A stretch of 20,140 nucleotides of DNA from Nanobdellota archaeon. GTDB taxonomy: Archaea; Nanobdellota; Nanobdellia; Woesearchaeales; JAHWHD01. Both the position numbers and the translations under genes were made by a program. Below the pieces are notes generated by a model that made no database searches, was not told the origin of the DNA, and saw only the letters and a program-made list of their open reading frames with translations. Where the stretch lies: the NCBI GenBank assembly GCA_034722435.1, contig JAYENX010000006.1, forward strand, positions 1 through 20,140, given 5' to 3'. This document shows positions 1,353 through 7,912 of this stretch, piece after piece; within the stretch, counting starts at the first letter, position 1, and the number at the start of each line of letters is the position of its first letter.

Positions 1353-4300
1353 ATGGTAGATAATTATAATCCTTTGGAATTAGAGTCTAAGATGTTGGAA
1401 TTTTGGGCAGAGAATAAAATTTGGGAACAGGCAAAAGAGAAAGGTAAAGGTAAAGAAGAATTTTATTTTTTACAAGGTCCTCCTTATACTTCTGGTAGAC
1501 TTCATATGGGTCATGCATGGAATAATTCTTTGAAAGATTTTGTTCTAAGGTATAAACGTATGGCTGGGTTTGATGTATGGGATAGGGCTGGATATGATAT
1601 GCACGGTTTACCAACTGCTCATAAAGTCATGGCAAAACATGGTTTGAAAGATAAACATGAGATTGAAGAGTTCGGTCTTAAAAAGTTTGCACAGGATTGT
1701 ATGGATTATGCTGTTGAAAAAGCAAAAGTGATGGATGAAGATCTTAAAAGGGTCGGTATATGGATGGATTTTGATAATGCATATTATCCTATAAATACTA
1801 ATTATATGGAAGGCGAATGGTGGCTTATTAAAAAAGCGCATGAGAATAATAGGTTGTATGAAGGTTTACGTACGCTTAGTTGGTGTTCTTCATGTCAAAC
1901 TGCTCTTGCAAAGCATGAGCAAGAGTATAAAGAGGTAACAGATAAATCAATTTTCTTAAAATTTCCTGTTAAAGATAAAGATGGTGAGTTTCTAGTTATA
2001 TGGACAACAACGCCTTGGACAATACCTTTTAATTTAGGTATAATGGTACATCCTGAATTGGATTATGTAAGGGCACAGGTTAAAGATGAAGTATGGATAC
2101 TTGCTAAAGGTTTAGCAGCTCCAGTGATTCAAACATTTACAGATGAGATGTTGCAAGTGGTTGAAGAGTTTAAGGGTGCTGAGCTTGATGGTTTAGAATA
2201 TGTTCATCCTTGGAATGGAGAGATTAAAGCTTATGCTGAGATGAAGAAAGTTCATCCAAAAATTCATACTGTTGTACTTTCAAGTGAATTTGTAGATTTA
2301 AGTGCTGGTACTGGTTTAGTACACATGGCTCCTGGTTGCGGTCCTGAAGATTATGAAGTTGGTCATAAAAATAATATTCCGCCTTACAATACTTTGAAAG
2401 AGAATGGGGTTTTTAATGAAACCATGGGTAAGTTTTCTGGATGGGTTGCTAAAACTGATGATTCTAAATTTATTGAAGAGTTGGATAGTACTGGTTTTCT
2501 TATAGCTACTAGTGATGTTGAGCACGATTATGCTCATTGCGAGAGATGTCATAGTCCGATTGTATATAGAACAACAAAGCAATGGTTCTTTAAAGTAGAA
2601 GATGTTAAGGATGAACTGGTAAAAGCTAATAATGAGATTTCTTGGGTGCCTGAAGCCGGTAAAAATGCTATGCGTGGATGGCTTGAACATTTAAGAGATA
2701 ATTCTATTACTAAGCAAAGGTTTTGGGGAACGCCTGTACCTATATGGAGATGTGAATGCGGGGATTATGATGTGATAGGTTCAGTGGAAGAGCTTCGAGA
2801 AAAAGCTGGAAGGGTTCCTGAGAATCTCCATAAACCGTGGATTGATGAAATTACTATACCCTGTAAAAAGTGTGGTAAGCCTATGAACAGGATTCCTGAC
2901 ATTTTGGATGTATGGATTGATGCAGGTACTGCTTCATGGAACTGTTTAGATTATCCTAAACGTGAAGATCTTTTTAATAAATGGTGGCCAGCTGATTTTA
3001 TACTTGAAGCTAAAGAGCAGGTGCGTGGTTGGTTTAACATGTTAATGGTGGCTTCAATAGTGTCAATGAATAAACCGATATCGTTTAAAGCTTGTTATAT
3101 GCATGGGATGTTAACAGATGTTGAAGGGGTGAAAATGTCAAAGAGTTTAGGTAACGTTATTTCGCCTTATGAAATTATTGATAGGCATGGAGCTGATACT
3201 CTTAGAACTTATGTATGCGGAACGCCTGCTGGTGAAGATATTAATTTTAGCTGGGATGAAGCAAAGTTAAAGCATAGAAATCTGACCATATTATGGAATG
3301 TTCATAAGTATCTTATTGATCTTTCTAAAGAGTTGGGTAAGAATCCGTTTACTGTAACTGCAGATATGGGTCTGGAAGAGAATTTTATCTTGTCAAGGTT
3401 GCATTCTACTATTAAGAAACAGACTGAAATATTTGATAAATATTTGTTAGATTCTGCGCCGGGTTGTGTTGAACAGTTATATCTTGAATTATCTCGTACC
3501 TATATTAAATTGGTTAGAGATAAAGCTGCTCTTGGAAGTGCAGATGAAAAGTGTGCAGTTTTATCTACAATTGGTACAGTGGTTTTGGAGTTATTAAAAA
3601 TATTTGCTCCAGTAGCGCCGTTCATTACGGAAGGTATATATCAAAATCTTAGAACTGAGTTTGATCTTAAACCTTTAAGTATACATCTTTATCCATGGCC
3701 TAAATGTAATGAGTCTTTGATAAATGAAGAGCTTGAGAGTTCAATGGCGATTGCTCAGAACGTTATCCAGAGCGTTTTATCTGCCAGAGATAAGTCTCAA
3801 GTAGGTTTACGGTGGCCTTTGAAAGAGGTAGTAGTTACAAGTGAAGGAGCTGGTAAGGCTGTTGAGTTGCTTAAGAATCTTATTAAGATTCAGACTAATG
3901 TTAAAGAAGTTAGGTTAGGGGTTGTAGAAGGTGTGAAAGAAACCATTAAACCTGATTTTTCGAAGATTAATCCTGAGTTTAAAGCGCGAAGTGCTGAAAT
4001 AATTGCGAGTCTTTCAACAACGTCAACTGAAAGTATCATGAAACATATTAAAGATAAAGGTGCTTATACGTTTGATGTGCGTGGTGAACAAGTATCGCTT
4101 AATATGAACCATTTTATATTTGTGAGAGAGGTTCCTGCACCGTACACTGCTTCAGATTTTAGGTTAGGTACTGTTTATTTGAGCCTTGACCAGGATGAAG
4201 CTTTGCTTGGTGAAGGGTTTGCCAGGGAGCTTATGAGGCGAGTTCAAGCTTTACGTAAAAAAGCTGGTCTGAGTAAATCTGATAAAGTTAATTTGACCGT

Positions 4301-4484: not shown

Positions 4485-5657
4485 TTAACAATCAATAGTT
4501 ATTAAGGGGATAAGCATTTCATCGTCTGTAACCCCTGCATGATGTCCTTTACCGAATATTTTTGGTTTATTTTTATTTATGAGTCTATCTCTTAGAATGT
4601 AATTCTTTTTCATAATTAAAACATAATCTCCCACCCTGTCTAGAAGTTTTTTACTTGGTTTACCTAGTCCGTATAAATTATCTTTTATTAATTGTTCTCC
4701 TTTGAAGCACCAACAGTATTTAGATAGTTTAGTTTTAATAATTCTTTTGAAATCTTTAACTTTCCCTGGTCTTACAAAACAATCTCTGACTCTTGGTTCT
4801 CCTGTCATTGGTATGGTTAAACATTCTTTTAATCCTTTTATGTTCTCAACCCATAGTTCGTTTTTCTTTACAGTATCAATTAAACCGTGATCTGCTACAA
4901 TTATTAATTTTGTATTGGTATTGTTTAATGTTTTTGTTAAAGATTTTATTCTTTTATCAAGACCTTTGAAAATATGTTTTACTTCTTTACTGTTGATTCC
5001 TGTTGAGTGTGCCATACTGTCAAAGTTAGGGAAATATGCGTGGATAAATTTTCTTTTAGTTGAACGTTTCTTGATTATTTGTTTTATCTTTGTAAATGTA
5101 TTAATTTCTGAAGAGGTTGGGATGATTTCTGTATGGCTTGCGACATAAGTTGTGAATTCGCTATGAGCAATACTTTTATCGATTAAAGTGTAACATTTTG
5201 CTTTGAAACTTTTATGGAATGGTTTTATGTTCATGAAGTTTGTCATATTGAACCCGTATTTTGATAATGATGTTCGGCCAAAAAGGGGTGTGAATGGGAG
5301 GATGCTTGTGATGGCGCCCGTCTCTTTAAGATTAATATCCCACCCGGTTAATCCGTGTTGTTGTGGAGGGTAACCTGTATGGAAAGTTGTGTTTGCGCAT
5401 GTAGTTGTTGATAAGAAGGTTGAAGTTATCTGTGTTTTAAGATGTTTGTACATGAACGATTCTTTTTGTTTATTTAGAAATTTGTATCCCATCCCGTCAA
5501 TAACGATTAATACTATGTTCTTGAACTTTTTTAGTTCTTTTGATTGGAGAGATGGTAGTTGTTTATATTTATGTTTTTTACCATAGTTATTAGAAATTGA
5601 GCTCATTAAATTTACAATACTTCCGTTTTTGTAGTTTGGTTTATTGAATTTGTACAT
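4485..5657 (-). CDS. Alkaline phosphatase superfamily protein (type I phosphodiesterase / nucleotide pyrophosphatase-like)
   Basis: Metal ligands and nucleophile in the expected order: VLIVIDGMG, STFLSTT, AYFPNFDSMAH, IVADHG, C-terminal GHHAG. Confidence 0.9.
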   Translation of the reverse strand: MYKFNKPNYKNGSIVNLMSSISNNYGKKHKYKQLPSLQSKELKKFKNIVLIVIDGMGYKFLNKQKESFMYKHLKTQITSTFLSTTTCANTTFHTGYPPQQHGLTGWDINLKETGAITSILPFTPLFGRTSLSKYGFNMTNFMNIKPFHKSFKAKCYTLIDKSIAHSEFTTYVASHTEIIPTSSEINTFTKIKQIIKKRSTKRKFIHAYFPNFDSMAHSTGINSKEVKHIFKGLDKRIKSLTKTLNNTNTKLIIVADHGLIDTVKKNELWVENIKGLKECLTIPMTGEPRVRDCFVRPGKVKDFKRIIKTKLSKYCWCFKGEQLIKDNLYGLGKPSKKLLDRVGDYVLIMKKNYILRDRLINKNKPKIFGKGHHAGVTDDEMLIPLITIDC

Positions 5658-5736: not shown

Positions 5737-5793
5737 AATTTATTTTTCTTTTGACTATTGCCATTTGGTATTTAAATTATGGTTGGTGAAAAA

Positions 5794-5997
5794 ATGGAAA
5801 GACCTTTAGATGCTTTACAAGCTGCAAAAAATAAACGAGTTCTGGTTGAAGTATGGGATGGAACAAAGTATAAAGGTATTTTGAAAGCTTTTGATTTGAA
5901 TTCTAATATTGTACTTGAAAAGGTTGAACTTGAAGATGGTTCTATTAAAGAATGGATGTTTTTAAGGAGTGTTTTTGGGTTTGTTGTAGTAGGTTAG
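5794..5997 (+). CDS. Sm/LSm-like RNA-binding protein (SmAP), divergent
   Basis: Sm1 motif RPLDAL..AKNKRVLVEV.DG..Y.G.LKAFD.NSNIVLE and a degenerate Sm2 (MFLRSV). GGTGA at 5785-5789 favours ATG 5794 over 5779. Confidence 0.88.
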   Translation: MERPLDALQAAKNKRVLVEVWDGTKYKGILKAFDLNSNIVLEKVELEDGSIKEWMFLRSVFGFVVVG

Positions 5998-6016
5998 CTT
6001 TTGTGTAATGGGTTTT

Positions 6017-6142
6017 GTAGAAAGTCTTTCGTTCAAGGTGGTCGAGTAAAAAATTAAGATGTTGTAACATTGTCATCGACCACTTCCTGTTATATAAATA
6101 ATAGGTAACGCTTTCGCTGGCCAGTTTGGCAAGACTTTCTAT
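6017..6142 (+). ncRNA. Putative structured RNA (multi-stem), family unknown
   Basis: Perfect 11-bp terminal stem (6018-6028 / 6131-6141), a 10-bp stem (6036-6045 / 6076-6085) and an 8-bp hairpin (6086-6093 / 6098-6105). The imperfect pairs inside these stems are G-U on the + strand. Confidence 0.55.
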
Positions 6143-6159
6143 TAAGTTATCATAATCAG

Positions 6160-6173
6160 AACCTTTAAATATT
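6160..6173 (+). promoter_or_regulatory. BRE-TATA promoter of the wHTH / methyltransferase-kinase unit
   Basis: aaccTTTAAATAtt, identical to 5723-5736, followed by an AAGGTG ribosome-binding site before ATG 6220. Confidence 0.55.
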
Positions 6174-6219
6174 TGAATTATCTTAATTCTTTTAATCATT
6201 TATAAAAAAAGGTGTTTGT

Positions 6220-6684
6220 ATGGCTGTGATTTCGAAAGATGTTCCTTTGGTTGAGATTACCCTTAGAAGGTATGAAAAGCCAAGTGTTAATGATAGAGAT
6301 TTAGTTAGGAAACTTTGTCTTAGTACTGGTCTGTTGCAACCGGGAGATTCTAGGGATGTTATTGTCGATGTTCTTTATGTATTATTGAAAGCTTTCAAGG
6401 GAAAGAAAGAGATGAACTCTGAAGAGGTTCGTGATGAAGTCATTCAGTCTCGAAGAGGGTTTAACCTTACTTTAGTAGGTGTTGCTTCTTCTAATATAAG
6501 AAGGCAATTGAAACGGTTAAGGGATATGTATATTGTTGAGAAAAATGTTAATAATTATAGAATTACAGAGTTTGTTTCATTAACAGAAACGTTTGAAGAG
6601 AAAGTTGAACAATTCTTGCTTACGCAAGTTTTGTCAAGGGTTAAAGATTATTATAAAGAAGTTGATGAGAAGTTTTTGAAATAA
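6220..6684 (+). CDS. Winged helix-turn-helix protein, putative DNA-binding regulator
   Basis: Helix-helix (MNSEEVRDEV...ASSNIRRQLKRLRD) followed by a beta-wing (YIVEKNVNNYRI). Preceded by AAGGTG. Confidence 0.7.
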   Translation: MAVISKDVPLVEITLRRYEKPSVNDRDLVRKLCLSTGLLQPGDSRDVIVDVLYVLLKAFKGKKEMNSEEVRDEVIQSRRGFNLTLVGVASSNIRRQLKRLRDMYIVEKNVNNYRITEFVSLTETFEEKVEQFLLTQVLSRVKDYYKEVDEKFLK

Positions 6685-6685
6685 G

Positions 6686-7912
6686 ATGGAATTGTATCAA
6701 CCACAAGAGGATACGTATTTGATCCTGGAGCAGGTTCAAAAATTGTCTAGAGGGAAAGTTCTTGAAATGGGGACTGGTACAGGTATTCTTGCATTTGAAG
6801 CGCAGAAAAATGCTAAATGGGTGGTAGCTCTTGATATTAATCCTGATGCTGTGAAGTTTGTTGGGAATTTAAGGATTCTTAAAAAAATAAAAAATATGTT
6901 AGTAAGAGATAGTAATCTTTTCTCGTTTTTGAAGAATAATTTTGTTGATTATGATAAAAAACGTAAACAGTTTAAGTTAACTTTTGATAATAAAAAGAAT
7001 ACTAAGTTTGATACTATAATATTTAATCCTCCGTATCTGCCAATGCATAAAGGGGAAGAGCAGTCAGTTGATCTTTATGTGTCGGGTGGTAAATATGGTT
7101 ATGAGATTGTAGAAGATTTTTTGAATGATGTGAATGAGTATCTTGAACCTGAAGGTAATGTATTTCTAGTTTTTTCTTCTTTAACCAAGCAAAAGAAGGT
7201 TGAGGAGATTATCAATAATAATTTGCTTGAGTTTGAACAGTTGTCAAGCAAGAAAGTGTTTTTTGAGGAACTTTATTGTTATAGAATTTATAAGTCGAAT
7301 ATTTTGAAGATATTAGAGAAAAAAGGTATTACTAATCTTAAAAGGTTGACTAAAGGGCACAGGGGTTGGATATTTACTGGAATGTATAAAGGTAAAAAAA
7401 TAGTTGTCAAGAAACAAAGAGAAGATGTCGCAGCAATTACGAGGGTTGCAAATGAGATTAATTTTTTGAAGGTATTGAATAAGAAGGGGATAGGTCCTAA
7501 AATTATATTTTCTGGTAAAGATTATTTTGTTTATAAATTTATTTCTGGGGCTTTTATCAAAGATTTTGTGGAGGTTCAGGGTAAAGAAGCTATTAAACAA
7601 GTTTTCTTGGATGTTTTTAAGTTGATGTATAAACTTGACAAGCTTAAGACAAATAAAGAAGAAATGACTAGGCCGAGGAAGCATGTTATTATAGATAATA
7701 AATTGAAAGTGCACCTTATTGATTTTGAGAGAGCCACTAAGACTGAGAAACCTAAAAATGTAACTCAGTTTGTGCAGTATGTTTGTTCGCTTTCTGAAAT
7801 GTTAAACAAGAAAAAGTTTAAGATTAATATAGATAAGTTAAGGGATGCTTCTAAAGTTTATAAAAAGGATATGAGTATAAAGAATTATAAAAAAATAATA
7901 AATTTAATTTAA
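6686..7912 (+). CDS. HemK2/PrmC-like SAM-dependent methyltransferase fused to a C-terminal atypical (COG2112-like) Ser/Thr kinase domain
   Basis: N-terminal YQPQEDTYL, VLEMGTGTG (SAM motif I), ALDINPDA and IFNPPY. C-terminal LTKGHRGWIF (P-loop), VVK, NEI, GIGPK, KEEMTRPRKH, LIDFERA and NVTQF. Confidence 0.85.
   Translation: MELYQPQEDTYLILEQVQKLSRGKVLEMGTGTGILAFEAQKNAKWVVALDINPDAVKFVGNLRILKKIKNMLVRDSNLFSFLKNNFVDYDKKRKQFKLTFDNKKNTKFDTIIFNPPYLPMHKGEEQSVDLYVSGGKYGYEIVEDFLNDVNEYLEPEGNVFLVFSSLTKQKKVEEIINNNLLEFEQLSSKKVFFEELYCYRIYKSNILKILEKKGITNLKRLTKGHRGWIFTGMYKGKKIVVKKQREDVAAITRVANEINFLKVLNKKGIGPKIIFSGKDYFVYKFISGAFIKDFVEVQGKEAIKQVFLDVFKLMYKLDKLKTNKEEMTRPRKHVIIDNKLKVHLIDFERATKTEKPKNVTQFVQYVCSLSEMLNKKKFKINIDKLRDASKVYKKDMSIKNYKKIINLI

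Follow-up and report, generated by a model that had tools for sequence, protein, structure and literature searches.

Results of our analysis indicate that the structured element situated next to the Sm/LSm gene in the analysed window, i.e., the whole stretch of 20,140 nucleotides of contig JAYENX010000006.1 of a Nanobdellota archaeon (designated here genome G000), is with high probability an old, decaying and non-coding copy of a MITE, the family of which is presumably mobilised in trans by the DDE transposases of IS5-family insertion sequences (ISs). In the preliminary description of this DNA, the element had been proposed to be a novel non-coding RNA (ncRNA) or 3'-UTR element that forms an RNP with the divergent Sm protein, and a MITE with 9-bp terminal repeats flanked by TA had been named as the alternative. 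The alternative holds as far as the class of the element is concerned and fails in its details, as the repeats are of 18 bp and the target duplication is of 9 bp, instead of a 9-bp repeat and TA. The correction that this implies is that a well-folding, covarying and Rfam-negative element beside the gene of an RNA-binding protein is a transposon relic and not a new RNP. It is relevant to the annotation of DPANN genomes and to pipelines for the discovery of ncRNAs, as a pair of terminal inverted repeats looks like a closing stem with covariation.

The whole MITE copy encompasses positions 6011..6148 (138 bp, no strand assigned) and is an old member of a subfamily that we call A-type. Its ends were set by comparison with the termini of a complete IS in locus L171, and its score with the covariance model R1, built from an alignment of 15 copies (A1), is 81.5 bits (E 7e-17). 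The stems listed in the preliminary description are present in the sequence at the positions given there, and the predicted plus-strand fold of positions 6010-6150 reproduces the architecture that had been read by eye, namely, a closing stem, a 10-bp hairpin around a small hairpin, an 8-bp hairpin, and a GCC/GGC hairpin. The minimum free energy (MFE) of this fold is -41.4 kcal/mol, as compared to -25.2 +/- 3.7 kcal/mol for shuffled sequences (z -4.4), none of which (0/200) was equally stable. The minus strand (MFE -34.2 kcal/mol; z -5.3 versus its own shuffles) folds about as well as the plus strand. The closing stem continues outward, imperfectly, to positions 6011/6148, and what had been described as stem P1 is the pair of 18-bp terminal inverted repeats of the element: the left one (6011..6028, plus strand) comprises the 5' strand of P1 with its outward extension, and the right one (6131..6148, plus strand) comprises the 3' strand of P1 with its extension. 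When 176 loci were scanned with a degenerate pattern, GGYTYTGTAGAAAGT, it matched just the window copy and two complete ISs. In the window copy, 11 bp of the terminal repeats are paired perfectly and the outer 7 bp imperfectly, with 4 mismatches. The places at which the left and right 9-bp target-site duplications are expected (6002..6010 and 6149..6157, respectively; no strand assigned) are eroded, with the match between them reduced to 4/9, which is not above chance, and no target duplication is recognisable at this copy; younger members of the family have perfect 9-mers at the equivalent positions of their flanks. From the four mismatches in the outer repeat and the 4/9 remnant of the duplication we infer that the window copy is old.

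Inside the terminal repeats, the helix that is common to the family and designated here P2 is formed by a 5' strand at 6031..6037 (plus strand; 6031-6032 and 6035-6037 paired, with a conserved 2x2 loop between them) and a 3' strand at 6111..6117 (plus strand), after which comes a nearly invariant CTGGC (6117-6121). The pairing of CGTT with AACG, suggested earlier for this region, is not a helix of the family, as the covarying helix consists of 6031-6032/6116-6117 and 6035-6037/6111-6113. Hairpin P4 (6120..6130, plus strand; GCC, a 5-nt loop, GGC) abuts the right terminal repeat and is present in all subfamilies, with GCC/GGC replaced by GCU/AGC in two copies. The interior hairpin (6036..6085, plus strand), which is the P2 of the preliminary description together with its small inner hairpin, corresponds to the variable hairpin P3 of the family: every copy has a hairpin of 7-10 bp in this place, the stem of which is unrelated in sequence and encloses a large, AT-rich loop. 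The second interior hairpin (6086..6105, plus strand; formerly P3) is specific for the A-type and is present in the predicted fold of the window copy; its pairing is lost in a sister copy on contig C23, and in the other subfamilies this region is occupied by the motif GTCTTACGA.

Diverged sister copies of the window element were identified with BLAST and nhmmer on contigs C23, C50, and C59 of G000, a genome assembly of 1.3 Mb with 33% GC, 60 contigs, and 94.5% completeness. Motif searches of this genome led to 16 full copies and to partial ones, and model R1 gave 17 matches on 14 contigs, which with two degenerate or partial copies make 19. The genome-wide copy number is therefore at least 17 dispersed copies in 1.3 Mb. 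The A-type sisters are decaying as well: the copy on C23 is devoid of interior pairing, that on C59 is degenerate, and that on C50 is a 5' half. Across the family, the copies are of 120-190 bp. All 19 copies of G000 are intergenic and lie beside unrelated genes, and 13 of them are located 26-111 nt upstream of a co-oriented gene, a bias that is not significant. On the plus strand of their contigs are 15-16 of the 19, which may be due to chance; the long ORFs of G000 are distributed about equally over the two strands (492 kb versus 539 kb), and the strand bias of copies is absent in genomes G074 and G004.

Outside G000, model R1 identified 11 copies in G001 (an unpublished genome congeneric with G000), 14 in G004, 3 in G041, at least 21 in G074, and 1 in G141. 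In the sample of the order, copies are present in 6 of 151 genomes, G000 included, and the remaining 145 have none detectable by this model. A sample of the whole class added G284, a further genome of this order, with 5 copies; the genomes of this sample from outside the order contain zero copies by model R1. The overall distribution, 7 genomes among roughly 170 sampled from the order, is thus patchy. A search of viral contigs with a specific pattern of the 3' end gave 0 matches. Of six copies of G001 that were examined, two are orthologous to copies of G000 and four have no counterpart there. The two genomes differ also in the insertion described here, since the window copy is missing from the Sm spacer of G001, although the spacers are too diverged for exact empty sites to be delimited. 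The unpublished genome G001 underlies the count of its 11 copies, the comparison of Sm spacers, the shared and unshared sites, and the compensatory changes in orthologous copies discussed below. Hairpins of about 35-40 nt with a terminal stem and a TTTCGCT junction were observed at G000:C1:17235-17275 and in the spacer between the Sm and 154-aa protein genes of G001 (L011). As far as can be judged from their sequence, these hairpins, which look like core-less mini elements, could be deletion derivatives or chance resemblances.

The Sm/LSm gene itself (5779..5997, plus strand; Pfam LSM domain PF01423, E 3.5e-10) is a neighbour that lies outside the element. The explanation by which the divergent Sm gene would be transcribed together with the element, and its product would bind the latter as a novel ncRNA or part of the 3'-UTR, draws on the position of the element, which is co-oriented with the Sm gene, begins 13 nt beyond its stop codon, and has no promoter of its own that is obvious in the interval, on its stable predicted fold, and on the U-rich tracts nearby. 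However, only one of the 19 copies of G000, the window copy, is near an Sm gene. Of the two U4G tracts that had been likened to Sm-binding sites, one falls within the coding frame of Sm, and the outermost bases of the left terminal inverted repeat (6011-6017) make up the other, so that the tracts are coding sequence and inverted repeat. In G001, the Sm and 154-aa protein genes are also adjacent, and the 116-nt spacer between them is without the element and holds only a hairpin of about 35 nt. Nor was an element found within 1.5 kb upstream of the downstream gene at any of its 80 orthologous loci in other genomes. G001 was the one other genome in which this gene pair could be recovered, given the excessive shortness and divergence of the Sm protein; in the unpublished genome G002, the 154-aa protein gene is not beside an Sm gene. 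Taking together the dispersal of copies, their lack in the G001 spacer and at the 80 orthologous loci, and the strand symmetry of pairing described below, we find no specific link between the element and the Sm protein, and regard the Sm RNP as scarcely credible.

Several observations concern the surroundings of the Sm gene. The gene at 4485-5657 (minus strand), between the genes of IleRS and Sm, is of the type I phosphodiesterase/nucleotide pyrophosphatase family, and in G001 the Sm gene directly follows that of IleRS. The protein of 154 aa encoded at 6220-6684 of the window belongs to no Pfam family and is conserved (50-86% identity) at more than 500 loci in Woesearchaeota/Nanoarchaeota genomes, and these relatives, from metagenome-assembled genomes, place the lineage of G000 in this group; in several genomes its gene is followed by the same methyltransferase-fusion gene. 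In the window, the latter (6686-7912) encodes a protein of 408 aa with an N-terminal small methyltransferase domain (PF05175 and relatives) and a C-terminal half that has no Pfam match at E <= 0.01.

In all copies of the family, the ends form a terminal helix of 18 bp, with 96.7% of its core cells paired. In 8 of 42 copies, perfect direct repeats of 9/9 immediately flank the inverted termini, as compared to 0.29% in a control in which the left flank of one copy was paired with the right flank of another among the 42 distinct copies (binomial P 5e-13). Repeats with at least 8/9 identities abut 12 of the 42 (control 3.7%, P 3e-8). Two of the perfect repeats come from the unpublished G001. The targets that were duplicated are rich in AT. 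The preliminary description had listed many dispersed copies flanked by target duplications as an outcome that would refute its RNP reading and point to a MITE, and this is what the family consists of (at least 17 copies in the window's genome, and perfect 9/9 duplications in 8 of 42). Three near-identical copies of another subfamily of G000, the B-type, have intact 9-mers, two of them clean and one with an extra partial duplication. Direct repeats of 20-21 nt flank the copy at G000:C3:34767-34900 and the G001 orthologue of the copy at G000:C9:15257-15386, each made up of a 9-bp duplication and, in the right flank, a second copy of the first 11-12 nt of the element; such an arrangement hints at an insertion beside or into an older end.

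The termini of the MITEs can be matched to those of ISs. The first 18 nt of B-type copies are identical to the sequence at the start of contig C33, where G000:C33:1-365 (L063) represents the left end of an IS5-family IS, truncated at the contig end, with the N-terminus of a transposase encoded after the 18-nt terminus. The reading frame in this region appears to be interrupted near its start. Full-length relatives of the C33 transposase are of about 305 aa with the PF01609 domain, and some of them are annotated as IS5-family proteins of Woesearchaeota. A complete IS of this kind is present in L157 (genome G015). It encodes a transposase of 305 aa (P0006; PF01609) that scores 145 bits with the NCBIfam IS5 model NF033579, the cut-off of which is 140. 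The IS is bounded by an inverted repeat of 20 bp without mismatches and by a perfect duplication of 9 bp, and its first 18 nt coincide with B-type MITE ends (18/18). In the case of the window copy, a matching IS is that of L171 (G080), which encodes an IS5-like transposase of 271 aa and is flanked by a perfect 9-bp duplication. The best model for this transposase is also NF033579, but its score of 101 bits is under the cut-off. The left end of the window copy is identical to that of the L171 IS in 15 of 16 bases and the right end in 13 of 16, with all three differences being C-to-T, and the left/right asymmetry of the IS is repeated in the window copy. Altogether, L157, L171, L167, L168, and L176 contain complete IS5-family ISs with 9-bp duplications, the ends of which match MITE subfamilies. 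Other IS5-family elements of the order are of 890-960 bp, mostly with perfect 9-bp duplications, and differ in their termini, and ISs with these other termini match other MITE subfamilies, including those of G041 and G004. The apparent covariation of P1 between subfamilies therefore reflects the fit of their ends to different transposase lineages.

These matches suggest, on the grounds of sequence, that the MITEs are moved by the transposases of these ISs. In such a mechanism, the transposase of a matching full-length IS would bind both terminal repeats and excise or copy the element, and insertion at staggered cuts 9 bp apart would give rise to the 9-bp target duplication. The targets would usually be AT-rich intergenic DNA near promoters, and the window copy would have been inserted between the genes of Sm and of the 154-aa protein downstream. 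The assembly of G000 contains no complete autonomous IS, and its truncated C33 copy fits the B-type termini and not the A-type ones of the window copy, and in G001, G004, G041, and G074 no such transposase was found at E <= 1e-10 or via PF01609/PF05598. The lack of a transposase in those genomes is weak evidence, because contigs with ISs tend to drop out of metagenome bins. The transposase tally covers 30 genomes and includes the unpublished G133. An IS66-family partner was considered on account of an element on contig C19 of G000 that shares a string of 10 nt with the window terminal repeat, and was rejected, as the IS5-type ISs match both ends in register and have the right duplication length. 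The entire 4.1 kb of contig C19 (L076:1-4138) consists of three adjacent ISs, namely, an IS5-family element (1-1193), a single-ORF IS66-family element with 13-bp inverted ends (1202-2769), and an ISH3/IS4-like element (2774-4091).

The family is devoid of coding capacity. The antisense ORF of 84 aa that spans the window copy (5945..6199, minus strand) belongs to no Pfam family and was judged to be spurious. A stop-free frame extends across the element in 13 of 42 members, with inconsistent strands and frames, and no reading frame is conserved across the element in these 42. Nor does the element resemble RNAs of known classes. A search of the whole window against Rfam gave nothing at the gathering score, a search at E <= 10 with the surroundings of the element and with 10 other copies gave only matches at chance level, and ARAGORN found no tRNA, in agreement with the earlier remark that the element is unlike tRNA, 5S, SRP, and RNase P RNAs. 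Inspected by eye only, C/D and H/ACA boxes, K-turns, and cores of hammerhead or other small ribozymes are absent or not conserved among the copies; the same kind of inspection indicated that motifs of tRNA-like or 5S-like layouts, attC sites, retron msr/msd, and TnpB/IscB guide RNAs are absent or unconserved.

Between the terminal repeats, the copies have in common a core that consists of the junction TCG-Y-TC, the 2x2 loop between covarying pairs, hairpin P3, the motif GTCTTACGA, and CTGGCC-loop-GGC, in which P3 is always there and its stem sequence is free. The consensus fold of alignment A1 obtained with RNAalifold has a long closing helix P1, a three-way junction, P2, P4, and a variable interior, with P2 composed of two pairs, the conserved 2x2 loop, and three more pairs. 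Among 43 distinct copies, the G-C pair of P2 is invariant and the Y-R pair is U-A in 28, C-G in 12, and U-G in 2, and each of the three further pairs is represented by 3-5 pair types. In the alignment of these 43 copies (A2), paired cells make up 95.6% of the consensus helices; the corresponding values are 70% for shuffles and 35-46% when partners are slid. Double or compensatory changes are present in 18 of 19 pairs. The pairing figures are inflated due to the fitting of A2 to the model. The two orthologous copies of G000 and G001 keep P1 and P2 by compensatory changes while their P3 stems are unrelated, a comparison in which neutral sites are probably saturated.

The preliminary description had regarded the G-U character of imperfect pairs on the plus strand as a sign of selection at the RNA level. 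At the family level, neither strand is favoured. Among the non-Watson-Crick cells of the consensus helices there are 20 G-U, 16 A-C, and 19 other, and the predicted fold is more stable on the plus strand in 20 and on the minus strand in 22 of 42 members (Wilcoxon p 0.95). With no strand asymmetry in pairing, the G-U argument fails, for the Sm RNP as well. A symmetric constraint of this kind fits inverted repeats or palindromes in DNA and not an RNA made from one strand. It would also fit a mobile element that moves as single-stranded DNA, either of the palindrome-associated IS200/IS605 type or attC-like, in which a recombinase recognises the folded hairpin, the more so that the pairing is strongly conserved and extends to interior hairpins of free sequence. 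However, fixed 9-bp duplications and the termini of DDE ISs are not features of HUH or tyrosine-recombinase elements, copies are single and dispersed and form no cassette arrays, and no R'/R'' core sites of attC were seen. We therefore consider such a mode of movement to be very improbable.

The core is common to subfamilies with different termini, in genomes of different families, and one core is combined with the termini of at least four IS lineages. A derivation of the MITE interior from an IS interior was considered and rejected, as no core was found in 20 IS loci by BLAST, motif scans, and the model; two short matches between the core and ISs were judged to be due to chance. Neither the conservation of a core of non-IS origin, nor the compensatory upkeep of P1 and P2 in the orthologous copies of G000 and G001, would be predicted for a MITE that is merely selfish. 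Another explanation is a functional structured element inside the MITE, or a domesticated MITE, the core of which would be a functional RNA or a cis-regulatory module, such as a 5' leader, terminator, insulator, or trans-acting sRNA, with the inverted repeats as its vehicle. In favour of such a function are the presence of the core in subfamilies with different IS termini and its absence from those ISs, the excess of paired cells over both controls and the covariation of 18 of 19 pairs, the conservation of unpaired motifs across genomes of different families, the compensatory changes in the two orthologous copies (where, as mentioned, neutral sites are probably saturated), and the position of 13 of 19 copies upstream of a co-oriented gene. 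Yet the pairing shows no strand asymmetry (20 G-U versus 16 A-C; stability 20:22), Rfam provides no match, the distribution is patchy, several copies are decaying, including those of the window's subfamily, the orientation bias is not significant, and the pairing figures are inflated by the model-fitted alignment. Moreover, selection at the level of the element or the hairpin-templated correction of quasi-palindromes can give rise to covariation without any function for the host. A functional core as the primary explanation of the element therefore seems improbable to us, though less so than transposition through single-stranded DNA.

For a non-coding MITE mobilised by IS5-family transposases, which is the explanation that we prefer, the role of the core may be sought at the level of the element. 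Our working guess is that the core helps to propagate a very short element, or that hairpin-templated correction of DNA keeps it palindromic. Selection at the element level, with the structure aiding the synapsis or recognition of an element of 130 bp, is possible, and so is a role of the core at the host level near promoters; we do not think that the core is a strand-specific RNA. A further reading, rather unlikely in our opinion, treats the core as an independent module of structured DNA or RNA, long kept and refitted with the repeats of at least four IS5 lineages, and required either for the mobilisation of a short element or for host regulation near promoters. If so, the family would represent a "TIR-swapping" structured MITE and not a simple deletion derivative of an IS.

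MITEs are to be expected in this lineage. In a census of 8220 archaeal genomes, MITEs were found in 20%, and the densest genomes include that of a Woesearchaea member with 105 MITEs per Mb (PMC11602168). The elements of that census were clustered at 95% identity, and their structure and IS partners were not described (PMC11602168). Our results add a documented pairing of MITEs with IS5-family ISs in Woesearchaeota, including the termini, the 9-bp duplication, and AT-rich targets near promoters. They also raise a modest question, namely, why a structured core that does not originate from ISs persists across subfamilies with different transposase lineages.

Among bacterial repeats, the Correia elements of Neisseria, ERIC/IRU, REP/BIME, RUP, and BOX are short, non-coding, intergenic, multi-copy, and palindromic, with predicted stem-loops. 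They are often located near promoters or gene ends, and some of their positions are conserved between related genomes. Correia elements generate TA duplications, and REP sequences, which are mobilised by HUH transposases of the RAYT type, give no duplication. The present family resembles all of these in its short, intergenic, multi-copy, and palindromic nature and differs from them in its duplications and partners, and we know of no counterpart among them to its three-way junction with the 2x2 loop and CTGGC.

The similarity to IS5 and IS903 is closer. IS903B, a member of the IS5 family, has repeats GGCTTTGTTGAA... with ends GGCTTTGTTGAATAAATC and a 9-bp direct repeat (PMC10569121). The 18-bp repeats of the present family begin GGC/GGT-T-TG...GAA and are likewise associated with a 9-bp duplication, and the resemblance of the partner ISs to IS903 is in their ends and in the length of the duplication. 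The partner transposases, of 271-305 aa, contain the DDE_Tnp_1 domain and match NF033579, and the termini of the MITEs are identical or near-identical to those of full-length ISs. The family described here differs from ISs of the IS903 type and from the MITEs derived from them in its hosts, which are Woesearchaeota (DPANN archaea), and in its interior, which is not a deletion derivative of the examined ISs, but a core joined to the termini of at least four lineages.
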